A stretch of 64,000 nt of DNA from Bacilli bacterium (GCA_028691715.1 JAQUYR010000001.1:22307-86306), one strand, 5' to 3'; shown: positions 45,204 through 58,526, counted from the first letter of the stretch. Notes: a model not told the origin generated them from the sequence alone. Numbers and translations are program-made.

Positions 45204-47132
45204 TTATTCAACGACGTAAACTACTCCTCGCCAAAAGCTCATAAATGTTTCTAAAGGAAATTCATAATATACAAATAGCCCTTCACCAAAACGTGAATTA
45301 ATATTAGGATCATTACAGATAACATATGTTTTCCCATTTACTTGTTTATAGCCCCGAACAACAATTAAGTGTCCTCCTGTAGTATACAGACCAGTGTTTC
45401 CCTTTATGCTTGCTCCAACAGGACCGACTGTAGCCAAATGGTATTTTAATTCATTCCAAGAATACATCCTTTGTACATAAGCATTTAGTCCAAAAGCTCC
45501 CATAGTAACAGTGTTGTATACCCAATTACCATATGTTGGATTATTATGTCCACGGTCAGCAACAAGACCTGCTATATAACGATGTTCATATAGAGGATCT
45601 TTATCAGTAAAATTAAATCCTTTGTATTTAAGAAGCATTGTTGAAGTGGTAGCACTACAAATAGAACCGCCAATTTCAGGAACCTCATTTTGATTTAATT
45701 TAGGAACATCATAATCAACCTCAACTGGTAGATTCTCCATATTTGGGGTATATGTATAATTAGGAATATCCAAAGTAACTGCCACCAAAGAAACTTTAGG
45801 TGATTCATCAGTAGTACTATTTCTTCTCAAAGTTATTTTATATTGGAAGGCGTTTCCTTTGTAAGGATCAATCAATAAAATCTCATCAGTATTCATTTTT
45901 ACTTTTGTATCATCCTGATTATAATAGAGATTATTTCTTCCCAGTCCCCAAACACCATATGTGAAATATTTACTCCAACTAGTGCCTACTTTAACCTTTA
46001 TCTGCAATTCACAAGTTGATACCGTACTAGATATCGCCGCCCATGAAGCAACAAGTTCTGTAAAGTTCTTTGTATTGAATATCAAAGATTCATAACTTCC
46101 TTCAACTGCTCCGTCAACAAGAATTAGTTTTCCCTCTTCTAACATAACATTTTCCATGTTTGTCTGACGATATGTTTCTACCCTATCCACTAAAATATGA
46201 TTTGCCATATTGACTTCTTTTTCTTCCATCATTTTCGTTTTCACCTCGAATGTTTTATCCATAGTTGTTGTTCCTGAAATTAATTGAACCCTTAAAGTTA
46301 TTGTTTCTTCAGCATATGTTAAATTAACAGTTCCATTAGAAGAAATAACCTTGTCATTTGATGATGTCCATATCGCTTTTACTCCAAAGCCGTATTCACC
46401 TTTTAAATCTAGATTTGTTTCTACAATTTCTGGTATAGAGATGGTTGCCATTGCCAATTCTAATTTTTGGCTATCCGGATAAGTTTTTACCAGAATTATA
46501 AAATCCTTACTTTCAATGTACTTATCATTATCACCATAGATTAAAGTAGCTGATAAAGTTATATACAAATCAGCAGGAACATAAGAATATTTTCCCTCAC
46601 CAGAGAGAACATTCTTATCCGATGAAGCCCAAACTATTCTGACCCCGTTAATCATTGTTGGTAAAACAATATCTTCACTTACTTCTAGTGGTATTGTTAA
46701 TTCATCCAGAACATTATAGAAGAGTTCTTTCTCATATGATTCAACCAACACCTGGCCAATATTTTTTTCTTCAGTAAATAAGTCTATACTCGCTTTAACC
46801 GTGATGGTTACCCAAATATCATCCTTTTGTTGAACAACTATTCCAGCATTACTTATTGCCGGGCTATTTGTAATCCATTCCAGTTCTATATTCTTCCCTT
46901 TATAAACAACAGCAGATTCAAACTCCAAATCTGTCTTTGTTTTTTGAGGTAGAGTAATTGTTTCTAAATATTCTTTTATTAGATCCCTTGTTTCCCTCTC
47001 GTTTTTTATACTATCTTCAATATCTTCTTCATTGTCTTCATCAGGTAAATCATTATTATCAACACCACTATTAACACAGCCATTCAAAAAAATAAATCCA
47101 AGCATCAAAAAAAAGATCACAATTTTCTTCAT
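45204..47132 (-). CDS. Secreted lipoprotein with Ig-like repeat region and C-terminal C39-like (papain-fold) cysteine peptidase domain
   Basis: 642 aa; lipoprotein signal MKKIVIFFLMLGFIFLNGC. C-terminal GGSICSATTSTMLL (Cys nucleophile) ...GGHLIVVRGY (His) ...ICNDP, as in Peptidase_C39_2 proteins. Confidence 0.5.
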   Translation of the reverse strand: MKKIVIFFLMLGFIFLNGCVNSGVDNNDLPDEDNEEDIEDSIKNERETRDLIKEYLETITLPQKTKTDLEFESAVVYKGKNIELEWITNSPAISNAGIVVQQKDDIWVTITVKASIDLFTEEKNIGQVLVESYEKELFYNVLDELTIPLEVSEDIVLPTMINGVRIVWASSDKNVLSGEGKYSYVPADLYITLSATLIYGDNDKYIESKDFIILVKTYPDSQKLELAMATISIPEIVETNLDLKGEYGFGVKAIWTSSNDKVISSNGTVNLTYAEETITLRVQLISGTTTMDKTFEVKTKMMEEKEVNMANHILVDRVETYRQTNMENVMLEEGKLILVDGAVEGSYESLIFNTKNFTELVASWAAISSTVSTCELQIKVKVGTSWSKYFTYGVWGLGRNNLYYNQDDTKVKMNTDEILLIDPYKGNAFQYKITLRRNSTTDESPKVSLVAVTLDIPNYTYTPNMENLPVEVDYDVPKLNQNEVPEIGGSICSATTSTMLLKYKGFNFTDKDPLYEHRYIAGLVADRGHNNPTYGNWVYNTVTMGAFGLNAYVQRMYSWNELKYHLATVGPVGASIKGNTGLYTTGGHLIVVRGYKQVNGKTYVICNDPNINSRFGEGLFVYYEFPLETFMSFWRGVVYVVE

Positions 47133-47372: not shown

Positions 47373-47402
47373 ATGACAAATGGGCTACTTTTGTTGTATA
47401 AT
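47373..47402 (+). promoter_or_regulatory. Putative sigma-A promoter of SGNH-sigma-antisigma operon
   Basis: ATGACA-18 nt-TATAAT. Overlaps the ORF-track start codon, so the true CDS start is downstream. Confidence 0.4.
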
Positions 47403-47417
47403 TTATGTGGTGATAAA

Positions 47418-48464
47418 ATGAATATTGGAAAAATAGATAAAAATATGCTTGATGACAAAAAAAATGAAATCGGTACCATTTGGTATGGTCGACCAGATAT
47501 TGATTATTCTGTTCATGGGTTGTATTGGTTTAAGGAGAACAACTCCTATTGTCGATTAAAAGAAGATACTTTTGTTAGTGATAATGTTAGTCAATTATCC
47601 TACCATCCTTCTGGTGCTTACTTAGCCTTTATGACCAATACGACTTCAATATCGTTGAGGGTTTCGCTTTCTTCTGCTGCATATATGTCCCATATGAGCG
47701 CTTGTGGCCAATGTGGCTTGGATTTATATTTCTTAAACAAGGACAACTATGTCTTTTTAGCGACTACTAAAATTAATAAAGCTGAATACGAAATAACCAT
47801 TATCTCAGGAATGTCAAAAAAAATGCGCGAATACCGTTTATATTTACCAATATATACGAAATTGATCAGCATTGAAATTGGTATTGACAGTGATGCCAAT
47901 ATTAATAAATGTGAAGATTTTAAGCCAGAAGCCATTGTTTGTTATGGTACTTCAATAACCCAAGGAGGTTGTGCTACTCGTCCTGGAATGAATTACTCCA
48001 GTATTTTGGGAAGACATTTAAATTACGAAATTTATAATTTAGGCTTTTCGGGAAGTGCGAAGTTAGAGGAAAATATGGCTTATCAAATATCATTGATTAA
48101 GGAGATGAAATATTTGATTATTGAAGCGGAAGCTAATTCTGGTTATTCAGATATCCTTGAAAACAGATTGAAAGCTTTCTTAGATATCATTGTGAAGAGC
48201 AGTAAAACAGATATTTTCATTATTTCTCACTACCCAAGACCTGATACTTTGATAAAATCTGATATCAGAAAAAAATTGCAAAAAAACGCATTGTTTCAAA
48301 AAAATATCTGCTCTTTATATAAAAATGTTAGTTTTGTTGATGGCAAAAAACTTCTTCGTTCTTATCAATTTGAAGAAACCGTTGATGGTACTCATTTAAC
48401 AGATTTAGGTTTTTTTGCTGTTGCAAAGTTTTTTATAAAATTAATTGAAAAAAAAGGTAATTAG
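47418..48464 (+). CDS. SGNH/GDSL-like hydrolase family protein
   Basis: Start moved to ATG with GGTGA RBS (MNIGKIDKN...). GTSITQGG block I and DGTHLTDLG block V (catalytic Asp/His) consistent with SGNH hydrolases. Confidence 0.6.
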   Translation: MNIGKIDKNMLDDKKNEIGTIWYGRPDIDYSVHGLYWFKENNSYCRLKEDTFVSDNVSQLSYHPSGAYLAFMTNTTSISLRVSLSSAAYMSHMSACGQCGLDLYFLNKDNYVFLATTKINKAEYEITIISGMSKKMREYRLYLPIYTKLISIEIGIDSDANINKCEDFKPEAIVCYGTSITQGGCATRPGMNYSSILGRHLNYEIYNLGFSGSAKLEENMAYQISLIKEMKYLIIEAEANSGYSDILENRLKAFLDIIVKSSKTDIFIISHYPRPDTLIKSDIRKKLQKNALFQKNICSLYKNVSFVDGKKLLRSYQFEETVDGTHLTDLGFFAVAKFFIKLIEKKGN

Positions 48465-48499: not shown

Positions 48500-49006
48500 A
48501 TGAATGCTCGAGAACTGGACAATTATATTAATTTATATTTATCTGGACAGGAAGATGCTTTTGATGTTATATACTATGAAACTCAAAAAACAGTATATTT
48601 ATCAATATATAATATTATCAAAGATAGAAGCCTAATTGAAGACATTATGCAAGATACCTATCTTAAAGCTATAAACTCAATTGAATACTACAAAAAAGGG
48701 ACCAATTTTCAAGCTTGGATTTCAACAATTGCTAGAAATCAAGCTATCAATGTTTATAATAAGCGTAAGAAGGAAACTTTGGTCGATCCTGTTGATAATA
48801 TAAAATTCTTTGAAAGTCCTGTTGAGAAAAATAGTTTACTTGAAAAGGCTCTAAAAGTTTTGGACGGTTTAGAAAAAGATATCATTGTTTACCATATAGT
48901 TCTCAATTTTAAATTTCAAGACATTGCCAATATTTTAGAAATTCCTTTAAGTACTGTTTTCTTTATGTATAAAAAGGCACTTTCAAAAATTAAAAAAGAG
49001 GTGTAA
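48500..49006 (+). CDS. ECF-type RNA polymerase sigma-70 factor
   Basis: 168 aa; region 2 (DTYLKAINSIEYY...WISTIARNQAIN) and region 4 HTH (DIANILEIPLSTVFFMYKKA). Confidence 0.85.
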   Translation: MNARELDNYINLYLSGQEDAFDVIYYETQKTVYLSIYNIIKDRSLIEDIMQDTYLKAINSIEYYKKGTNFQAWISTIARNQAINVYNKRKKETLVDPVDNIKFFESPVEKNSLLEKALKVLDGLEKDIIVYHIVLNFKFQDIANILEIPLSTVFFMYKKALSKIKKEV

Positions 49007-49010
49007 TACC

Positions 49011-49631
49011 ATGAAAATTAAAAAATTTAAAAATATTGTTAGTGCTGAGAAAATAGATATTCCCGATATTTTTGAGAAAATCAAACCTATTGCTTATGCA
49101 AAAAAAGTTCCTGCTCTAGCAACTATTAAACCATCATATAGAAAAAGAATCATCTTTGCTTCTTTGGTAACAGTAACCTGCGCTTTTCTATTGATTTTCT
49201 TTGTTCCTGGAGGCTTAAAGGAAGTAATTGATTTTGATCCTATGAATACAGAATCATCTTTGGATGATCCTACACTAGACCCCAACGTTCCCAAAGATAG
49301 TGAAAACGAAAGCGAAGATCCAGAAGTTCCAACCGATAACCCCAGAACATATCAACAGGATTATTATTATTCCTTGTTTAATAGTATTGGTAGTGAAGTA
49401 GAACCATCAGATAGTGAGGGTGTTGTTTTGACCGAAGAGCAAAAAGAGACAGTCTTACCTCCTTCAGTTTTTTACGCTATGTATGATATAATCATCACTT
49501 CTGGAATTACCGATTATGATATGGTTATCAATGATCTAATCGCCTGGGGTAAAGATTATTCTTATGATGCCACCTATTTTCACGATAACAATGATAAGAT
49601 CTTATATGTTTATGATTTACTAATTGGATAA
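49011..49631 (+). CDS. Putative single-pass anti-sigma factor
   Basis: 206 aa; ~45-aa cytoplasmic N-terminus, one TM (IIFASLVTVTCAFLLIFFV), acidic extracytoplasmic domain. 4 nt after the sigma gene. Confidence 0.5.
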   Translation: MKIKKFKNIVSAEKIDIPDIFEKIKPIAYAKKVPALATIKPSYRKRIIFASLVTVTCAFLLIFFVPGGLKEVIDFDPMNTESSLDDPTLDPNVPKDSENESEDPEVPTDNPRTYQQDYYYSLFNSIGSEVEPSDSEGVVLTEEQKETVLPPSVFYAMYDIIITSGITDYDMVINDLIAWGKDYSYDATYFHDNNDKILYVYDLLIG

Positions 49632-49647
49632 TTTGATATCATGTGTT

Positions 49648-49670
49648 AAAGGGCTTATAAACAGCCCTTT
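49648..49670 (+). terminator. Terminator of sigma/anti-sigma operon
   Basis: AAAGGGCU-uauaaac-AGCCCUUU followed by UCAUUUUGUU. Confidence 0.6.
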
Positions 49671-49689: not shown

Positions 49690-49720
49690 AAACCTCTTAA
49701 GTTTTACTTAAGAGGTTAAT
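49690..49720 (-). terminator. Terminator of the DUF2779-lipoprotein operon
   Basis: AACCUCUUAAG-uaaaa-CUUAAGAGGUU 11-bp stem followed by UUUUAAUUUAU on minus strand, just after the lipoprotein stop. Confidence 0.6.
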
Positions 49721-49721
49721 T

Positions 49722-52307
49722 TTATTTAGTATAGATTAGATAAGATTCTGCTTGGTAAATGCTTATTTCCAAGACATTTAAATACTCTTGTAAAGTATAT
49801 GTATCATATCTGAATGTAAATTCATAATTCAATTGATCTTTATAAAAAGTTCTAGCAACGTTATATATAGTACCAAGTTCAGCTGATAAAGGAACATATA
49901 TATCATCGATAACAGTCATTTCATCCTCTGTAAGTAATGTAGTATCTTCATCAGCAAGATAAAGTTGAATTTCTTCAAGTGTAGGAATTATTCTTTCTCC
50001 TTCATCACCAATTCTAGTCATATCATAACATTTAATATTAATATATATTTGATATCCATCTTCACTCTTAATATATTTTGGATCCTCAGAAGTTCCATAT
50101 ATTTCCGGCTCTTCTGATTCTGGATTCTTATCCCAAATATATTTGGCAGCAGCATCGATTTCTTCTCCATATGTTCCGCCAGCAAAGACATCTAGATCTA
50201 TGCTATAAATTTTTATACCAGCAGTTTTATACTTAGACATCTCTATTCCCGCAAAACTTGAATTTGCTGGGCTGGTTTCATCGCCTAATAGATATGGGGC
50301 AATGTTATAGGCGTAAATAAGAGCATTAATGTTTTCTTCATAATTTGCTGGATTAATTTCAATATACTTTAATATTTCTAGATAGAATTCTTCGACTAAA
50401 GCTTTTTGCTCATCTGTCCAAGTGCTTGGATCGGTTCCCCTCTCATCAGCACCTTCGTAAGTAATTAGAACAGTCCAGGCGTCAACCTTGAAATATGTAT
50501 CGGCAATCTCTTGCATTTTTTCCTTGAAATATCTCCATAAGTCAGAATCTTCGCTGACACCAGTTAGGTCACTCGTGTTATTGATATAGGTATTCATCAA
50601 GTCACGGCGTAAATATAACAAGGCTAATTCTTTTTCTGTTCTAACACCATATGCCTCCATTAGGAAGTTTTCCCATCCATAACTTGCTGGATATCCATAT
50701 TGTGTATAATCATCAGATAAGAAATTATCCTTTTCCAAAGCGACATCGGAAACCATTGCTTCCCAAACATCTTCATTAAGAACTCTTTTACTATCATCAT
50801 CTGTTTTCATCTGTAAATCATATACATTATTAATATTTAAATCATATAAAAAGTTGTGATAATTTACAAGTTCTATAGCTACATATGGCCCATATGAATA
50901 ATCTAAATCCAAAAACATCTGTTCTTTTGTATACATACCGATTAATGCTGAATTATCGTTTTTATCAGTAATGTCCATAACAGCTACATATGTTTCATGA
51001 TTCCTTGCAGCTTCAGTTACTTTCTTATCAAAAAGATTGTTGTATGAATACTGTATATAACCATCATATATTACTAGATTGTGTAGCCATCTAATATATG
51101 CCATTTCTTCGTCAATCTCGCCATCAGTCAAATCTTCCATTACCATTTCTGATACAATGCCTTCTTTAGCTTCTTCGTATGTGATTGGCTCGATTTCTTT
51201 GATATTCAATATAAGATAATTTACATCGTTAAAGACTTGAACTCTTGGAGTATACCAACTCGCATTCTCAACACTATTATCAGTAGTATATGATGACATA
51301 GTGTTAATATATGTTGATAAGTCACTACTAAGTTGTGTTAATTCTTTTCCAGTATAATATAGTTGACTACTGGTGTCCTCAGTATTAAAGACTATTTTAT
51401 CATCAACAATATTGTAGTCAGTGCCTTCTTCTATTTCAAGGACTGTTTGAGCATCAGCTTTCTTAACCATTGTTTTATTATATAAATCAATGAATACCTG
51501 GGTTATTTCCTTTGTTGTAGCCACATTCCCTGTTTCATCGTTGATCCATTTGTTGTAATCACCTTCAACAGAGCTATCTGCAGGGCTTATTGTATATCCA
51601 AGTTGAGCTAAAGTATTCTCAATTTCTAGATAGCTGTTAAAAGGAATTATTATGCTCCAGAAAGAGCTAAGATAATTTTCTTTATAAAAAGTTTTCTTTT
51701 CTCCTTCAGTAAAAGGATCAGCCTGTTTTAACAGAGTATAATAATCAGTTACACACTTATATTTAGCAAGTTTTAAATGGTGATATTCTATTAAATCATC
51801 AAATTTTCGATAACCATGGCTATAAGAATCAAGAAGATAATTCTTTTGAAGAATTTCCATAACCTCTTCATCAGTATAATTAGCCGTTCCATCAGTAAAA
51901 TAATAAGCAATCATATCATCAATAATTTCTTCATCAGTAACTTGATCCCAGTAAGTGATATCGCTAATGTCTAAAAATTCTTCGCTTGTCTTAGATAGTT
52001 TCTTATAAAGATCTCTTTTACTGAAATTTTTCAAAATTGTTTTATCCGACCAATTAATGACAGCATCAATTCCCGCTTGATTGCGCAAATTAATATACAT
52101 TTCATCAACAGTAATATCATATGATAAAGTTCCTTGCTTTACTGTCATATAAGTCTCTTGACCTTCAGCAAGAATTTGTTCTGGATTATCTTCTATTTCA
52201 GGAGTAGGTTTGCATCCATCGCAACCAGCCATACAAAAGATTCCTAATATTGTGATTATTAATAATAAAATTTTTTTCATCGTCACTCGCTCCTTATTTG
52301 GGTTCAA
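49722..52307 (-). CDS. Large lipoprotein of unknown function
   Basis: 861 aa; lipobox ...ILGIFCMAGCDGC after MKKILLLIITIL (ORF-track N-term extended). Acidic, Tyr/Asp-rich, no recognisable catalytic motif. 9 nt downstream of the DUF2779 gene. Confidence 0.5.
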   Translation of the reverse strand: MNPNKERVTMKKILLLIITILGIFCMAGCDGCKPTPEIEDNPEQILAEGQETYMTVKQGTLSYDITVDEMYINLRNQAGIDAVINWSDKTILKNFSKRDLYKKLSKTSEEFLDISDITYWDQVTDEEIIDDMIAYYFTDGTANYTDEEVMEILQKNYLLDSYSHGYRKFDDLIEYHHLKLAKYKCVTDYYTLLKQADPFTEGEKKTFYKENYLSSFWSIIIPFNSYLEIENTLAQLGYTISPADSSVEGDYNKWINDETGNVATTKEITQVFIDLYNKTMVKKADAQTVLEIEEGTDYNIVDDKIVFNTEDTSSQLYYTGKELTQLSSDLSTYINTMSSYTTDNSVENASWYTPRVQVFNDVNYLILNIKEIEPITYEEAKEGIVSEMVMEDLTDGEIDEEMAYIRWLHNLVIYDGYIQYSYNNLFDKKVTEAARNHETYVAVMDITDKNDNSALIGMYTKEQMFLDLDYSYGPYVAIELVNYHNFLYDLNINNVYDLQMKTDDDSKRVLNEDVWEAMVSDVALEKDNFLSDDYTQYGYPASYGWENFLMEAYGVRTEKELALLYLRRDLMNTYINNTSDLTGVSEDSDLWRYFKEKMQEIADTYFKVDAWTVLITYEGADERGTDPSTWTDEQKALVEEFYLEILKYIEINPANYEENINALIYAYNIAPYLLGDETSPANSSFAGIEMSKYKTAGIKIYSIDLDVFAGGTYGEEIDAAAKYIWDKNPESEEPEIYGTSEDPKYIKSEDGYQIYINIKCYDMTRIGDEGERIIPTLEEIQLYLADEDTTLLTEDEMTVIDDIYVPLSAELGTIYNVARTFYKDQLNYEFTFRYDTYTLQEYLNVLEISIYQAESYLIYTK

Positions 52308-52316
52308 TACACCCGC

Positions 52317-54122
52317 TTATACTCCACATTTTTTTCTTATGCCCGCCAATACGACCACCATTGACCACGTATCCTGCGAACAATAAGTTATTAATTCTTG
52401 TCTTAATTCCTCTATTTTTTCTCTGTCTAAAACTTTAAATCGGGAATAAGCTACTATTGCTTCTGTTCCATTAGCAATTACTAAGTCCTTATATGATAAA
52501 TTAGAGAAAAGTGGTAGAACTTTTTTTATCGAATAACTTCCATGAAGCCCGTTATGATAATAGTTAACTCTCTTGCTTTCTCTTTCATCGAAACCCAGTG
52601 CCTGATATAAAGAAGATCTACTCTTAACAATATCCATCAAATCAAAGATGCTATCATTTATCTTTTGTAACTCTTTTTCATACTTTGGAAATATTTTGCT
52701 CAGCTCGCTTATCCTTGTATACTCATAGCTTTTATTATAAACCAGAACACTTCCACCATTTGTCAAGTCTATGAGTCTTATTAATTCCTTGACTAATTCT
52801 TCTCGGCAGTCATTGAAATCCTTTGCTAGAAAGGAATAACGATCTTTTATAAAGTCACATTCACCTGGTTTTTTTTCAATATGTAAAGAAAATTGGAATA
52901 AAGATTGAGAATAGGGATTTTCTCCAAAAAACCTTGGTAATGGTCCAGGAAAGCCTTCAAAATCCAAATGATATATCGGATAACGAAGTTCATCTAATCC
53001 CAACAATATTTTTCTTTCGTCAATATACTCACAATTTCTATCAAAACAGTCTCTTTGTATCAGTTTATTATCATCTTTTAACCAAGTATATGGAACATCG
53101 CCTAGACTATAATACTCTAAATTAATCATTTTTTCAAGAGAATATTTATTTTTATCTTCGTCGATAAACTCCTTTTTCCCAATTGTTTCCAAAATGGAGC
53201 CACTCTCTTTAAGTCTTTTCCAGCATACAGGAAAATAATGGCATTCATCAGTCTTCTTTACTCGACAATCAGGAACCATTTTATATGGTGTAAGCTTGCA
53301 TTCTTCGATATATCTAACAATCTTCTGTCTGTTTTTTTCAATCTCTGGTAAATATTGAGATGTAACTTCTGTTAGATCGATAAAGCAAATCAAATTTTCT
53401 CCATTTATCTGATTATAAATAGCATTCCCATTATCGTATTTGCCATCAAAAACATACTTGTTATTTAATACAGCTAGATAATACTTATAATTTTTATTCT
53501 CAGCCCTCTTATCACTGTTTTCAATGATATATCTCTCAATAGCAATATCAAAAACATACTTGCCAACTTCGTTATAGCGATCAAAAAGTTTCTCATATGA
53601 AGATAACAATTTCTCACTATCCTCAAAATTATTCCTGATTTTCAAAACTCCATCATCATCAATAAACAAACTGAAAAATTCTTTTTTTTCAGTATAACCC
53701 ATTTTTCTGAACTTCGAAGTTGTCGTTGCTTTTACTTCAATTACTATCGCTTCATTCTCATTTTCAAAATAACCATCTAAATAACTATAATATGTGTGCC
53801 CCTTTTCATCAGTGAATGAAAACTTCATCTGATCTTTTGTTGATTCCTTATATTCAAAATGACCATCGAATGTTTTATTTGCCTGGATAATTGCTTCTCT
53901 TTCAACATCTTTGTAAAAATCAAGCATTGCTTCAGTTTGAGCATCAACTTTAAATAATTCATCTCCTGTTTCAAAATCAAACATCGACGATAAAATGTCG
54001 ATGATATCATCTTCCTCGTAATCCCCGATTTCACTATCAAGCTTCTTTAAATATATTTGATCCAGCGGGTAATACCTATGGCATTTTGTATATTTTTTAA
54101 ACTGCGTCTTCGAAATGTTCAT
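52317..54122 (-). CDS. DUF2779-type protein: PD-(D/E)XK (Cas4-like) nuclease domain fused to RNase H-like/DnaQ-like exonuclease domain
   Basis: 601 aa; MNISKTQFKKYTKC... N-terminus characteristic of DUF2779. D...EAIVIEVK PD-(D/E)XK core, Cys cluster CRVKKTDECHYFPVC. C-terminal YHLDFEGF...YCSQDTW exonuclease-like motifs; SIKKVLP conserved tail. Confidence 0.6.
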   Translation of the reverse strand: MNISKTQFKKYTKCHRYYPLDQIYLKKLDSEIGDYEEDDIIDILSSMFDFETGDELFKVDAQTEAMLDFYKDVEREAIIQANKTFDGHFEYKESTKDQMKFSFTDEKGHTYYSYLDGYFENENEAIVIEVKATTTSKFRKMGYTEKKEFFSLFIDDDGVLKIRNNFEDSEKLLSSYEKLFDRYNEVGKYVFDIAIERYIIENSDKRAENKNYKYYLAVLNNKYVFDGKYDNGNAIYNQINGENLICFIDLTEVTSQYLPEIEKNRQKIVRYIEECKLTPYKMVPDCRVKKTDECHYFPVCWKRLKESGSILETIGKKEFIDEDKNKYSLEKMINLEYYSLGDVPYTWLKDDNKLIQRDCFDRNCEYIDERKILLGLDELRYPIYHLDFEGFPGPLPRFFGENPYSQSLFQFSLHIEKKPGECDFIKDRYSFLAKDFNDCREELVKELIRLIDLTNGGSVLVYNKSYEYTRISELSKIFPKYEKELQKINDSIFDLMDIVKSRSSLYQALGFDERESKRVNYYHNGLHGSYSIKKVLPLFSNLSYKDLVIANGTEAIVAYSRFKVLDREKIEELRQELITYCSQDTWSMVVVLAGIRKKCGV

Positions 54123-54240
54123 TTTCAGTCTCCTAAAAAATCTTGTATATCATTCTACCATTTTTAGCCACAAAAAACAAGTACAGACTTTTTTTATAAA
54201 AACATTATTATTCATATTACCTTTTTTAACTTAAAGTTAA

Positions 54241-54277
54241 CTTAAAAAAAGCCGACTCCCTTAAAGGCATCAGCTTA
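54241..54277 (-). terminator. Terminator of SBP-permease operon
   Basis: AAGCUGAUGCC-uuuaa-GGGAGUCGGCUU hairpin overlapping the stop, followed by U7 on minus strand. Confidence 0.5.
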
Positions 54278-55018
54278 TAATAATTTTAATTTAATTATTT
54301 TTAAAATTTCTTCTACAATTAGAATAAAAATTATCAGAACTATTGTCCAGGCAAAAACATTTGCCATCTCCAAAAAGTTTTTTTCTTGAAGCATCATATA
54401 ACCAATCGTGTTATTTGGCTGTGCAATGAATTCTGACATAACCATAACCTTTAATCCAAGACCGATTGTTGAAACAAGAGCACTAAAAATTTGAGGCATT
54501 ATTAGGGGTATATAAACCCCTTTTATTGTTTCAAAGTTAACTCCTGAAATCATTTTAATCTCATCGGTAATTCCTCTATCAATTGATTGAAAGCTCAATA
54601 GAAATGCTTCATACATGATTGGAAGAACTATCAATAGAGTAATAATATATGGGCTCTTAACATTTCCAAAAATCATCAGAAGTATTATTATGATGGCAGC
54701 AACGGGAATTGTTCTCATCAGCGTCATTAAAGGTCTAATAAACTCTCGGAATTTCGAAGAGACATAAGAAATAAGCGATAAGATCAAAGCTATTACAAAA
54801 GATACTCCAACTGTCATAAGTAGCCTTAACATTGTATTAAATATTACTAAGTATGTTTGCTTTTCCTTAAACATATTTATAAAAGCCGAAAAAACCTCAG
54901 ATATTTTGGGAATGACTAAAGAATTATCCATCAAATAAGAAGCAATAAACCATAAAAGAAAAATAAATACTATTCCGTAAAAAAACCAATAATTGATTTT
55001 AATAGTATATTTCTTCAT
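54275..55018 (-). CDS. ABC transporter permease (binding-protein-dependent, NitT/TauT-like)
   Basis: 247 aa; 6 TM segments, EAA-like loop region. Overlaps SBP gene end. Confidence 0.7.
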   Translation of the reverse strand: MKKYTIKINYWFFYGIVFIFLLWFIASYLMDNSLVIPKISEVFSAFINMFKEKQTYLVIFNTMLRLLMTVGVSFVIALILSLISYVSSKFREFIRPLMTLMRTIPVAAIIIILLMIFGNVKSPYIITLLIVLPIMYEAFLLSFQSIDRGITDEIKMISGVNFETIKGVYIPLIMPQIFSALVSTIGLGLKVMVMSEFIAQPNNTIGYMMLQEKNFLEMANVFAWTIVLIIFILIVEEILKIIKLKLL

Positions 55019-55949
55019 CTACAACCAATCCACCCAATATTTTATCGTTATATTTGTTCAGTAAATTGCAATAAGCAATAATAATGTTTTTATTATCTTT
55101 TGCTGATATATATTCGATATTACTTCTTGGTATACTTCTTTTGAGAATATCGCTTCCTGTTTTTGTGAAGAAATCATTGAGATTTATTATTCTATCAACA
55201 TACTCATCGGTTTTATTATTCATTTGCTCAATATTTTTTTCTAGTTTACTCATAAAAGTTTCAATATCTTTGATGTATGGCGAGTCTGGATTTATAAAAA
55301 CGGCTGCTTGAGGAATATTTGACAGCTCTTCTTTCATAACATCCTGAAGATTAATGATATTTAATTCAACTCCATATTTTACTTCCAGAGTCGTAATTGT
55401 TGGTTCAGCTGATAAAATATATTTTGGAGCATCGCATTCTTCAGTATTATCAGTACTACATACAAAGAAGGGAACGATATCGTTAACTCCCGCCTGATAG
55501 GTAATATTCGCCTCATAATTATTTGCTTCTAATGCTGCCTTTAAAATGATATCAGGAACATTGTTTTGCCCATATGCCAAAATATCTTGGCCATCTACAT
55601 CAGAAATGCTATCTAAGGTTGTAGATTTTCGGCTTACAAGATAGGTATTACCTAGTGTTATTATGGAAAATAGTTTATATGTTGATGACCCATTCATAAA
55701 CAATTTCATTCCTACAGTTAAAGGAGCAATTATAATATCATGTGATTTTGAAATCATAGCTGTAGTTAATAAATCAGCGCCACTAACAACTGTATATTCA
55801 ACATTCTCCTCTTCTAGTAATCCTCCAACTGCAATTAGTGGTGTTCCAGCTGGTAAAATAACCTCTATTTTATTCTCAATTTTCTTAGTACATCCTCCTA
55901 AAAATAAAGATATAAACAAACTTATTAAAACTATTACAATTTTTTTCAT
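54999..55949 (-). CDS. ABC transporter substrate-binding lipoprotein (NMT1/SsuA-like)
   Basis: 316 aa; lipoprotein signal MKKIVIVLISLFISLFLGGC; periplasmic-binding-protein-like fold. No ATPase gene in the operon. Confidence 0.55.
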   Translation of the reverse strand: MKKIVIVLISLFISLFLGGCTKKIENKIEVILPAGTPLIAVGGLLEEENVEYTVVSGADLLTTAMISKSHDIIIAPLTVGMKLFMNGSSTYKLFSIITLGNTYLVSRKSTTLDSISDVDGQDILAYGQNNVPDIILKAALEANNYEANITYQAGVNDIVPFFVCSTDNTEECDAPKYILSAEPTITTLEVKYGVELNIINLQDVMKEELSNIPQAAVFINPDSPYIKDIETFMSKLEKNIEQMNNKTDEYVDRIINLNDFFTKTGSDILKRSIPRSNIEYISAKDNKNIIIAYCNLLNKYNDKILGGLVVDEEIYY

Positions 55950-56011: not shown

Positions 56012-56027
56012 TGTAACATTTGTTACA
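56012..56027. promoter_or_regulatory. CRP/FNR-type operator TGTAA-CATTTG-TTACA
   Basis: Perfect 5-N6-5 inverted repeat. Overlaps +1 of the crp-like promoter, and sits at about -41.5 relative to a TATAAT -10 of the divergent SBP-permease operon. Confidence 0.45.
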
Positions 56028-56040
56028 GAAAGGAAACGAT

Positions 56041-56652
56041 ATGAACGTTTACACTCATCCTTTTCTATTGGGGCATTCTATTGATTGCAACAGATATATT
56101 ACCATCAAACATTATAAGAAGGGTGATATTATCCATTCTGAAGGAGATATTTGTGATCATTTATCCCTGGTTTCTTTAGGAAATGTTTCTGTTTCTACAT
56201 ATACTTATTCGGAAAAAGAGTATTCAATAGCCAGCATTAACTCTGGTGGAATATTCGGACAGTTCTTACTCTTCTCCGATAATCCCCATTTCCTTGGTAA
56301 TGTTATAGCAACCACTAAAGCAACGATAATCAGAATAAATAAAGATAACTTATTAAGAATGTTAAGTGAGGATAGAGTTATTTTAACAAACTTCTTAGGA
56401 ATAGTAGCAACTTCTTTTATTTCTATTCAAGAGAGAGTAAAAATTCTATCTCAGAAATCGATAAAAGACAGCATTATGTTCTACATAAATGAGATAACAA
56501 AAAAGACAAAGCAAAAAACAATTTATATCAAGAGCAAAGAAACTTTAGCAAAATATCTAAACATTCCCAGGCCTTCACTTTCACGTTCTTTGATCGCCCT
56601 AAAAAAAGAGGGGCTTATCAGTATTAATGGAAAATATATTACAAAAATATAA
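56041..56652 (+). CDS. Crp/Fnr family transcriptional regulator (cNMP-binding domain + C-terminal HTH)
   Basis: ORF track uses TTG at 56020; ATG at 56041 has AAAGGAAA RBS. Beta-roll cNMP-binding region and HTH LAKYLNIPRPSLSRSLIALKKEGLI. No FNR-type N-terminal Cys cluster. Confidence 0.8.
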   Translation: MNVYTHPFLLGHSIDCNRYITIKHYKKGDIIHSEGDICDHLSLVSLGNVSVSTYTYSEKEYSIASINSGGIFGQFLLFSDNPHFLGNVIATTKATIIRINKDNLLRMLSEDRVILTNFLGIVATSFISIQERVKILSQKSIKDSIMFYINEITKKTKQKTIYIKSKETLAKYLNIPRPSLSRSLIALKKEGLISINGKYITKI

Positions 56653-56653
56653 A

Positions 56654-56694
56654 AAGCATAAATCAAAAATATGATTTATGCTTGTTTTTTTTAT
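56654..56694. terminator. Bidirectional terminator between crp-like gene (+) and hydA (-)
   Basis: 12-bp perfect stem AAGCAUAAAUCA/UGAUUUAUGCUU with U-runs on both strands. Confidence 0.7.
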
Positions 56695-58526
56695 TTAGAA
56701 TACTTTTCACGTTTAATATAATGAGTGTGTAATAGATGATGGGATACATGTCCACAAGGCTCTTTCAAGAATTCATCATATAAACGTATAACCTCTGGAT
56801 TTTTATGAGATTCTCTCAGTTTAGATGTATCATCAATGCCATAAATAGCTTTTGCTCTTTCTTTTCTGACATCGATCTTATCTTGAACTTTAGCACTAAT
56901 TACTGGTTGTCCACCACCATTAACGCATCCTCCCGTACATCCCATAACTTCAATAAAGGCGTATTGTTTTTCACCTTTCTTGATTTTTTCGAACATTTCT
57001 GGAACATTAACTGTACCATGAACAACAGCGAAATTTAAATCCAGACCATTAATATTTAGTGTGGCTTCTTTGATACCATTTTCTGTACCACGAACTTCAC
57101 TAATTACAACATCTTTCATATCCTTCTTCTCTAAAAGTTCTTTGACTGTTCGTAATGCTGCTTCCATAACTCCACCAGTAACGCCGAAGATTGCTCCAGC
57201 ACCAGTATATTTTCCAAATGGACTTTCGATTTTAGCATCAGGAAGCTCTCTGAAGTTGATATCTTGACGTTTAATCAGTCTTGCTAATTCTCTTGTTGTT
57301 AAAACATAGTCAACATCGCGTAAACCATCTACTTCCATCTCTGGACGATGAGCTTCAAATTTCTTAGCGATACAAGGCATAATTGAAACAACTTTAATCT
57401 TTTCTTTAGCGATTCCAATCTTATCTGCATAATAATGTTTTATCAAAGCTCCTTGCATTTGTTGAGGAGATTTGCAACTAGAAAGATTCTTTAAATATTC
57501 AGGATAATATGTTTCAATATATCTAATCCATCCTGGAGAACAAGAAGTAAGCAGTGGTAAAGCAACTTCCTCTTTGTTTAAAAACTTAGTAAGTCTTTGA
57601 ATAAGCTCTGTTCCTTCTTCCATGATAGTAACATCGGCAGCAAAATTGGTATCAGTAACATCATCAAATCCTAATTCCTGAAGGGCTTTATACATTTTGC
57701 CTTCAACATTAGTTCCAATTGGATAATCAAATTCTTCTCCTAAGGCAGCTCTAACTGATGGAGCAGTTTGAGCTATAACATAGTATTCTTTCTTTTCTAA
57801 CAACTCAATGACAGAATCAACATCATCTTTCTCTTTGATAGCGCCAACTGGGCAAGCTTGAATACACTTACCACAGAAGATACATCCAGAGTCTTCCATG
57901 TTGTGATTAAGTGCTGGTCCAACATATGTTTCAAAACCACGGTTATTAAAATCTAACACCTTAGTTCCTGCTAATTTTTCACAAGCACCTACGCATCTTC
58001 CACAAAGAATACATTTTGAACTATCTAAAACAATTGAATCAGTGATATTTAAAACTGCTTCTTTTGTTGAGAAAGTATTGTTTTCGCCTATAACATTAGG
58101 AATGTTATATTTTCTTAATAGATGTAACAATTCACAATTATGTTCACGAGGACAGCGCCAGCATTCAAATCGATGATTAGCAGCGATTAATTCTAAATTG
58201 TTTTTAACTGTTTTCTTAACTCTTTCAGTGTTTGTTCTAACAACTACAGAATCAGCTCCACGGCCTAAGCACTCTCTTACTTTAACAGTACAAGAGTTTT
58301 TTAATGTCCTAATTCCTTCTATTTCAACAACGCAAATACGACAAGCTGAAGTTTCATTGATACCCTTTAAGAAACAAAGACGAGGAATATCAACACCAGC
58401 AGCATAGGCAGCATCCATGACAGTATAATCGCCAGGTACTTCTACAACCTTGTTGTTTATGATTACTTTTATTAAATCACTCATATCTATTCCTCCTAAG
58501 CCGTAATAATAGCATTCTTTGGACAA
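56691..58526 (-). CDS. hydA: [FeFe] hydrogenase catalytic subunit HydA (M3-type; L1 motif variant TSCSPGW)
   Basis: N-terminal [2Fe-2S] (CRICVV), His-ligated [4Fe-4S] (HRFECWRCPREHNC), two ferredoxin-like CxxCxxCxxxCP motifs. H-cluster motifs L2 MPCIAKKFE and L3 EVMGCTGGCVNGGGQP. Likely true start ATG at 58484 (MSDLIKV, AGGAGG RBS); ORF track uses upstream TTG. Confidence 0.9.
   Translation of the reverse strand: MSKECYYYGLGGIDMSDLIKVIINNKVVEVPGDYTVMDAAYAAGVDIPRLCFLKGINETSACRICVVEIEGIRTLKNSCTVKVRECLGRGADSVVVRTNTERVKKTVKNNLELIAANHRFECWRCPREHNCELLHLLRKYNIPNVIGENNTFSTKEAVLNITDSIVLDSSKCILCGRCVGACEKLAGTKVLDFNNRGFETYVGPALNHNMEDSGCIFCGKCIQACPVGAIKEKDDVDSVIELLEKKEYYVIAQTAPSVRAALGEEFDYPIGTNVEGKMYKALQELGFDDVTDTNFAADVTIMEEGTELIQRLTKFLNKEEVALPLLTSCSPGWIRYIETYYPEYLKNLSSCKSPQQMQGALIKHYYADKIGIAKEKIKVVSIMPCIAKKFEAHRPEMEVDGLRDVDYVLTTRELARLIKRQDINFRELPDAKIESPFGKYTGAGAIFGVTGGVMEAALRTVKELLEKKDMKDVVISEVRGTENGIKEATLNINGLDLNFAVVHGTVNVPEMFEKIKKGEKQYAFIEVMGCTGGCVNGGGQPVISAKVQDKIDVRKERAKAIYGIDDTSKLRESHKNPEVIRLYDEFLKEPCGHVSHHLLHTHYIKREKYSK

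Follow-up and report, generated by a model that had tools for sequence, protein, structure and literature searches.

A DUF2779-family dual nuclease gene adjoining a tandem PrsA-like lipoprotein gene in a narrow lineage of Bacilli

Proteins carrying the DUF2779 domain (PF11074) have been assigned to the 3'-5' exonuclease clade of the RNase H-like superfamily, as family F.17, and this domain co-occurs with a DUF83 PD-(D/E)XK domain (Majorek et al., NAR 2014; PMC3985635). The family member of JCVI-syn3.0, MMSYN1_0389, has been described as joining a DEDD(y) nuclease to one that resembles Cas4, with activity predicted for both, and its gene is reported to be quasi-essential (mSphere 2026; PMC13621843). 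That study treats the family under 'immunity connections' and concludes that its role extends beyond immunity, since the gene is needed in parasite-free culture. In addition, a DUF2779 transposon mutant was among those selected in a cell-culture study of Mycoplasma bovis (PMC7373297). Here we analyze a member of this family encoded in a 64,000-nucleotide (nt) stretch of DNA from a Bacilli bacterium (GCA_028691715.1 JAQUYR010000001.1:22307-86306; hereafter the window), together with the large lipoprotein gene that follows it on the minus strand (positions 49,722 to 54,122). An initial annotation, made from the sequence alone, had proposed that the two products, a cytoplasmic dual nuclease and a secreted lipoprotein, are coupled and take part in the uptake or processing of DNA, in nucleotide scavenging, or in a defence or toxin-related function.

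We consider it probable that these are instead two functionally unrelated genes that happen to be co-transcribed in a narrow lineage, one encoding a cytoplasmic dual nuclease and the other a tandem PrsA-like chaperone lipoprotein. Conservation of the partnership, which the initial annotation had put forward as a check on its proposal, was assessed in 80 species-representative DUF2779 loci (L006-L085). A homolog of the lipoprotein follows DUF2779 in five of them (L006, L007 and L008, with lipoproteins of 63-64% identity; L012, 34%; L018, 37%) and is absent from the other 75, which counts against coupling on the terms that the initial annotation had itself set. The pair is also present on two metagenome contigs (L001 and L002), and every paired locus (the window and seven relatives) has the two genes in the same orientation, 10-40 nt apart. 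In a neighbor-joining tree of the nuclease, the paired loci fall within one 14-member clade, where they form two sub-branches interleaved with seven species that have no lipoprotein at that position.

Each gene also occurs in a closely related setting without the other. In L003, whose nuclease is 53% identical, DUF2779 and its sigma-70, GxDLY esterase, and aBig_2/Peptidase_C39_2 neighbors are kept and the lipoprotein is missing, and in L005 a convergent Rrf2 gene stands in its place. Conversely, in L087 the lipoprotein is present and a TetR-family gene occupies exactly the slot of DUF2779, within a neighborhood that reads Crp, binding protein, permease, lipoprotein, anti-sigma, sigma, esterase, peptidase. 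In L086, L088, L089, and L090, which encode more distant homologs of the lipoprotein, the conserved surroundings are different and consist of a CCA-adding enzyme, an HD protein, one or two giant lipoproteins, a metallo-beta-lactamase (MBL)-fold protein, RlmH, UvrB, MnmA, and RecD2, and none of these loci contains DUF2779. Two giant PrsA-like paralogs are encoded in two of them, adjacent in L089 (1964-4582 and 4700-7285) and split by the MBL-fold gene in L086 (1435-4089 and 4983-7445). The pairing is thus confined to one narrow Acholeplasmataceae-like lineage of Bacilli, and no joint system is indicated.

The lipoprotein itself had been described as acidic and as having no recognisable catalytic motif. 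The first part of that description stands, as the mature protein has an isoelectric point of 4.16 (160 Asp and Glu versus 65 Lys and Arg). Searches with the single sequence against Pfam, NCBIfam, PADLOC and, by sequence, the PDB likewise returned nothing useful, whereas structure and profile comparisons clearly relate the protein to PrsA. A Sec/SPII lipoprotein signal peptide with the lipobox MAGC (Cys20), MKKILLLIITILGIFCMAGC, is encoded at 52221..52280 (-) and is kept in homologs. Only 8 homologs at ≥55% identity were found in a word-indexed search; when 1.84 billion representatives were searched exhaustively with a profile, 112 family members of ~800-1250 amino acids (aa) were recovered, and the family consensus contains the parvulin-like motifs GxHLLI, LGTFxNGxMVxxF, and FGYHVYVN. 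An AF2 model calculated from a 44-sequence alignment (pLDDT 87.1) was compared with known structures using Foldseek. Nearly all of the top 27 matches are PrsA/SurA-type chaperones, with probabilities up to 1.00, and they include PrsA from B. cereus, Listeria, S. pneumoniae, B. subtilis, S. mutans, L. lactis, and E. faecium as well as SurA, PEB4, Cbf2, and PpiD.

Profile-profile comparisons resolve this similarity into two modules. As a reference we used 16 canonical PrsA proteins (~320 aa) from other DUF2779 loci, confirmed as Rotamase proteins at E = 2e-22. Module 1 (aa 36-425; 51006..52175 (-)) comprises a SurA-N-like segment, a strongly diverged parvulin-like domain, and a C-terminal helix, and aligns by hhalign with residues 24-330 of the 340 in canonical PrsA (probability 99.3%, E = 3.5e-20). 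Module 2 (aa 426-852; 49725..51005 (-)) has a parvulin-like domain that is degenerate in the window copy and matches canonical PrsA with a probability of 98.4% (E = 5.6e-15). Reciprocal HMMER searches between the lipoprotein and canonical PrsA were significant in both directions (E = 4e-23 to 7e-11 one way and 3e-20 to 1e-12 the other). When the N-terminal half was aligned with the C-terminal half, only a 35-column SurA-N-like repeat was recovered (E = 3.6e-4). Because the direct similarity between the halves is limited to these columns, the duplication is supported mainly by the match of each half to full-length PrsA. Taken at the level of profiles and predicted structure, the lipoprotein consists of two complete PrsA-like modules that arose by tandem duplication. 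Against PDB sequences the family profile gave a marginal match to Pin1 (E = 0.73). A match of the same profile to a single-stranded-DNA-binding protein (E = 8e-4), which covers a short helical stretch, disagrees with the structural and profile-profile evidence and was rejected as spurious.

The window lipoprotein therefore shares with PrsA (B. subtilis 4WO7, B. cereus 6VJ6, Listeria PrsA1 5HTF) a lipoprotein anchor and the order SurA-N-like segment, parvulin domain, C-terminal helix, and it shows significant homology, in structure and in profile, to SurA-like chaperones more broadly (SurA 1M5Y, PEB4, Cbf2, and PpiD). Unlike canonical PrsA, which has ~300 aa and a single module, it has ~850 aa and carries two complete modules in tandem.

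We also considered whether either parvulin domain could be an active peptidyl-prolyl isomerase (PPIase). Module 1 lacks the parvulin catalytic His pair across the whole lipoprotein family. In module 2, the two positions are His in 31/44 and 38/44 family sequences, and the pair has been lost in the clade of the window, whose copy has T603 and Q744. The window copy carries further changes in this module (G697D, M704Y, V705G, and F708I), which include the Met/Phe substrate pocket. No match to Pfam Rotamase (PF00639 / PF13616) was found in the window lipoprotein, and none of the 44 family members reaches the gathering threshold, the best relative scoring 22.3 bits against a cutoff of 22.5. With degenerate active sites in both of its parvulin domains, the window copy probably acts as a holdase or chaperone only and not as an active parvulin PPIase. 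PrsA and SurA can function as chaperones without PPIase activity, and the repeat that is conserved best in the lipoprotein is that of the SurA-N-like chaperone segments. Anchored to the membrane on the outside of the cell, the protein would most likely assist secreted and surface proteins, as a holdase or foldase.

The nuclease belongs to the family introduced above. PF11074 matches the 601-aa protein with E = 1.9e-35 (122.3 bits versus a gathering cutoff of 23.3). The match spans the full model (1-126) and covers aa 384-531, which correspond to the C-terminal exonuclease; the initial annotation had given the accession as PF10926 and had regarded the N-terminus as the part characteristic of DUF2779, and both points need correction. 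The NCBIfam model for the UU173 family (NF045869) scores 61.3 bits, below its curated cutoff of 225, and by this measure the protein is related to, but outside, the UU173 subfamily and is a member of a different one. Homologs are numerous, with at least 1803 recovered in a word-indexed search and at least 572 confirmed loci in species-representative genomes.

Residue conservation was examined in a 38-sequence alignment reaching down to 42% identity. The motifs quoted in the initial annotation (MNISKTQFKKYTKC, EAIVIEVK, CRVKKTDECHYFPVC, YHLDFEGF, and YCSQDTW) are all present in the translation and fall at invariant or near-invariant columns. The N-terminal domain (~aa 1-310; 53193..54122 (-)) is predicted to be a Cas4/RecE/MGME1-like PD-(D/E)XK nuclease, in which the catalytic D...ExK residues D116, E129, and K131 are invariant. 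Three C-terminal cysteines of this domain (C286, C294, and C300, spaced C-x7-C-x5-C; nt 53223..53267 (-)) are also invariant, and C14 is nearly so. Together, C14 and C286/C294/C300 would form the one-plus-three cysteine arrangement of Cas4 and AddB, a putative site of the 4Fe-4S type. The C-terminal domain (~aa 381-601; 52320..52982 (-)) has the features of a DEDDy 3'-5' exonuclease, with Exo I (D387-x-E389), an Exo II-like motif (N463-x2-Y-E467), D494, and Exo III (Y580-x3-D584) invariant throughout. From the motif pattern, E467 may serve as the Exo II acidic residue.

An AF2 model of the whole protein (pLDDT 92.5, pTM 0.87) gave concordant results. Foldseek matched its N-terminal half to RecE (probability 1.00), MGME1 (0.99), Cas4 SSO0001 (4ic1; 0.89-0.90), lambda exonuclease (0.87), and SOX, with E-values of 2e-3 to 0.1 for the PD-(D/E)XK matches. 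The C-terminal half was matched to Pop2p/CAF1 (E = 1.2e-3, probability 0.99) and the PolB exonuclease domain (probability 1.00), and further to the WRN exonuclease, TREX1/2, Pol nu, and the DinG exonuclease domain. The combination of a Cas4-like core, a cysteine cluster, and a DnaQ-like exonuclease that had been read from the sequence is thus borne out by conservation, model, and structural matches. DUF2779 had also been said to have no established function. This is true as far as experiments go, although the two-nuclease architecture has already been published and is not new here.

Comparison with characterized systems places the protein more closely. Like MMSYN1_0389 and family F.17, it combines an N-terminal Cas4-like D...ExK nuclease with a C-terminal DEDD exonuclease in which Tyr replaces His (DEDDy). 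Unlike MMSYN1_0389, which is reported to keep two cysteines, the window subfamily keeps all four Cas4-type cysteines. The N-terminal domain shares its fold and D-ExK triad with Cas4 (SSO0001, PDB 4IC1), RecE, MGME1, lambda exonuclease, and the AddB nuclease domain, and with Cas4 it also shares the arrangement of one N-terminal and three C-terminal cysteines. It differs from Cas4 in being larger, with insertions, in its fusion to a DEDDy exonuclease, and in lacking a match to the Pfam Cas4 model (none at E up to 1). The C-terminal domain has the RNase H-like fold, Exo I-III, and Y-x3-D of DEDDy/DEDDh exonucleases (Pop2/CAF1, WRN, TREX1/2, PolB, Pol gamma, MrfB). In contrast to the usual DEDD exonucleases, its Exo II has Glu (N-x2-Y-E467) where Asp is usual, and in contrast to those found on polymerases or helicases, the domain is fused to a PD-(D/E)XK nuclease.

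Most likely, the enzyme processes DNA ends from both polarities: the Cas4/RecE/MGME1-like domain would work on 5' ends or single-stranded DNA, and the DEDDy domain would trim 3' ends. We suggest that it serves the cell as a housekeeping enzyme of DNA-end processing, repair, or recombination, because the gene is broadly distributed in stable, non-mobile contexts, frequently has RecX and SSB neighbors, and matches no defence model, and because essentiality has been published for a family member.

The organization of the locus is consistent with the operon that had been proposed. Both of the adjacent minus-strand open reading frames (ORFs) previously reported, of 601 and 861 aa, are present. The nuclease gene (52317..54122 (-)) is preceded by a ribosome-binding site, AGGAG, at 54134..54130 (-). 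The 861-aa lipoprotein ORF (49722..52307 (-)) and the 9-nt gap reported earlier depend on a TTG start. We prefer the ATG at 52280 because it has an AAGGAG ribosome-binding site (52295..52290) at a spacing of 9 nt and because homologs of 850-852 aa align from the same Met (MKK...) with 100% coverage. The lipoprotein gene would then most likely span 49722..52280 (-) and encode 852 aa, leaving a 36-nt intergenic spacer (52281..52316 (-)) that holds the AAGGAG site.

A scan of this spacer found no terminator-like hairpin. Directly after the lipoprotein stop codon, as had been noted, lies an intrinsic terminator with a 12-bp stem, a 3-nt loop, and a T-run (49717..49691 (-)). Scanning of both strands showed this hairpin to be perfectly palindromic with T-runs on both strands, and it could be a bidirectional terminator common to the lipoprotein gene and the convergent sigma/anti-sigma unit. 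A second hairpin, facing the plus strand, is located back to back with it at 49648-49670, between the convergent anti-sigma and lipoprotein genes. Upstream of the pair, between the DUF2779 start and the permease gene that ends at 54275, we note a candidate sigma-70 promoter (54152..54180 (-)) consisting of TTGTTT, a 17-nt spacer, and the extended -10 element TGgTAGAAT. It was read by eye and is not among the matches of a consensus scan, which was itself uninformative in this AT-rich DNA (31% G+C), giving 25 matches versus 28.6 expected by chance; its assignment to the gene pair is an inference only. Because the genes are co-oriented and 36 nt apart, and a terminator follows the second gene but none lies between the two, we infer that they are probably co-transcribed in the lineage of the window. 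This co-transcription appears to be an accident of gene order.

The wider neighborhoods of DUF2779 give a further indication of its role. Clustering of flanking ORFs from the 80 loci identified no universal partner. A RecX-family gene (RecX_HTH1, E = 2e-14) lies ~300 nt downstream of DUF2779 on the same strand in 19/80 loci (for example L082, 8153-8974), and an SSB-like gene lies upstream in 10/80. These neighbors hint at a link to recombination or repair. Other recurrent neighbors are CysS and mini-RNase III (13/80 each) and a pyrimidine-nucleoside phosphorylase-like gene, named from sequence only (14/80). A canonical PrsA gene (~320 aa) is found convergent to DUF2779, 0.9-3.5 kb downstream, in 16-17/80 loci (L027-L029, L032-L035, L038, L040, L042, L044, L054, L056, L065, L076, L084, L085).

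Several observations weigh against treating the two genes as unrelated, or against parts of our assignment, and have to be set beside the alternatives. The short co-oriented spacing of the pair is kept even where the lipoproteins are only 34-37% identical, and 22/80 loci have a PrsA-type gene no more than 6 kb downstream of DUF2779 when both arrangements, that of the window and the convergent one, are counted. These features, along with the common terminator and the uninterrupted 10-40 nt gap in the window and its seven relatives, are what would be expected if nuclease and lipoprotein formed one module, with the nuclease working in the cytoplasm and the lipoprotein extracellularly, whether in the uptake or processing of DNA, in nucleotide scavenging, in defence, or in a toxin-related activity. 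We nevertheless regard such a module as most improbable. No domain related to nucleic acids is present in the lipoprotein; it is a foldase of PrsA-like type, and its reading as a DNA-uptake lipoprotein was rejected for that reason. The pair is absent from 75/80 loci, DUF2779-only (L003) and lipoprotein-only (L087) versions of the neighborhood exist, most sampled members of the lipoprotein family lie elsewhere, and neither protein matches a PADLOC-DB v2 defence model at E up to 1. The canonical PrsA genes of 17 loci, being convergent, cannot be co-transcribed with DUF2779, and each of the two PrsA-type arrangements is limited to its own subclade. Their proximity to DUF2779 is likely inherited synteny, which is the simplest explanation. 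It is very unlikely, in our estimate, that the proximity is ancient and functional, with the foldase maturing a partner outside the cytoplasm, for example a surface nuclease or a DNA-uptake component, whose products the DUF2779 nuclease would then process, and that, separately, the double-PrsA proteins constitute a class of giant chaperones, not recognised before, that are largely devoid of PPIase activity and specific to Acholeplasma-like Bacilli. We therefore retain the reading of two genes for which we infer no functional link.

The assignments of the individual proteins can be questioned as well. For the nuclease, searching Foldseek with the whole two-domain model kept the E-values at only ~1e-3, and the family profile is weak against PDB sequences (Cas4, E = 0.17; DEDD structures, ~1). 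These sub-significant profile matches do fall on the right motifs, with the cysteine cluster on Cas4 8d3l and YCxQDTW on Pol gamma ExoIII. The repair role, in turn, draws on genomic context and on one essentiality report for a distant family member. A 'solo-Cas4'-type factor acting in immunity or against mobile elements, rather than in housekeeping repair, would fit the Cas4-like fold and cysteine cluster, as well as the discussion of the family under 'immunity connections' (PMC13621843). We judge it unlikely, given that the nuclease matches no PADLOC model, that the gene is apparently single-copy in stable housekeeping contexts across hundreds of species, that no defence-island or mobile-element neighbors were seen in the loci examined, and that the same study arrives at a role beyond immunity. 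No cas genes were found among the neighbors examined (ABC transporter, Crp-family, sigma factor, esterase, peptidase); CRISPR arrays were not searched for. For the lipoprotein, the degeneration of both parvulin sites in the window copy, the very large size and high acidity, and the fast divergence of the family, with its 8 homologs at ≥55% identity, could point to a structural surface protein or adhesin built on a PrsA-derived scaffold and devoid of chaperone function. Such a role seems quite unlikely to us, as loss of PPIase activity is compatible with chaperone function in PrsA and SurA, the SurA-N-like segments are the repeat that has been conserved best, and most family members keep the His pair of module 2. 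A predicted chaperone thus remains our preferred assignment for the lipoprotein, and a predicted housekeeping dual nuclease for the DUF2779 protein.

Several other features of the window surround the pair. A four-gene envelope-related block adjoins the lipoprotein gene (48500-49631 (+), 47373-48464 (+), and 45204-47132 (-)). It contains an ECF-type sigma factor (168 aa; Sigma70_r2/r4) followed by a putative anti-sigma membrane protein of 206 aa with no Pfam match, both encoded convergently with the lipoprotein gene, as well as a GxDLY/SGNH esterase and a 642-aa aBig_2/Peptidase_C39_2 lipoprotein. This sigma/anti-sigma/esterase/peptidase block is syntenic in L001, L003, and L087, with or without DUF2779 or the giant lipoprotein. 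On the other side of the pair, a 316-aa lipoprotein with no Pfam match (54999-55949 (-)) overlaps by 20 nt a BPD_transp_1 ABC permease gene (54275-55018 (-)). It presumably represents an unannotated substrate-binding protein family and is found upstream of DUF2779 in ~10 related loci. Further upstream, a gene for a monomeric [FeFe]-hydrogenase (56691-58526 (-); Fe_hyd_lg_C, E = 1e-96, with 2Fe-2S and 4Fe-4S ferredoxin domains), which indicates a fermentative anaerobe, adjoins that of a Crp/Fnr-type regulator (56020-56652 (+)). GC skew across the window (1-64000) is negative in almost all 2-kb bins (~-0.2), and its cumulative curve falls nearly monotonically apart from a small rise at 48-50 kb; no turning point marking a replication origin or terminus is present within the 64,000 nt.

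Since the proposed nuclease-lipoprotein module does not hold up, the pair matters little as a system, and its interest lies in the separate proteins. What is new is an unannotated tandem variant of PrsA; the nuclease is a further member of a described family. Even so, with its four cysteines, the DUF2779 subfamily of the window would be a better biochemical candidate than the Mycoplasma protein for studying a widespread, reportedly quasi-essential family. The double-PrsA family illustrates the duplication of a whole module with subsequent loss of the PPIase site. Its recognition allows ~110 clusters of lipoproteins of 800-1250 aa, which have no Pfam, NCBIfam, or PDB annotation, to be annotated as tandem PrsA/SurA-like foldases, and this should be useful for annotating the secretion and folding machinery in metagenome-assembled genomes of Acholeplasma-like and gut Bacilli.

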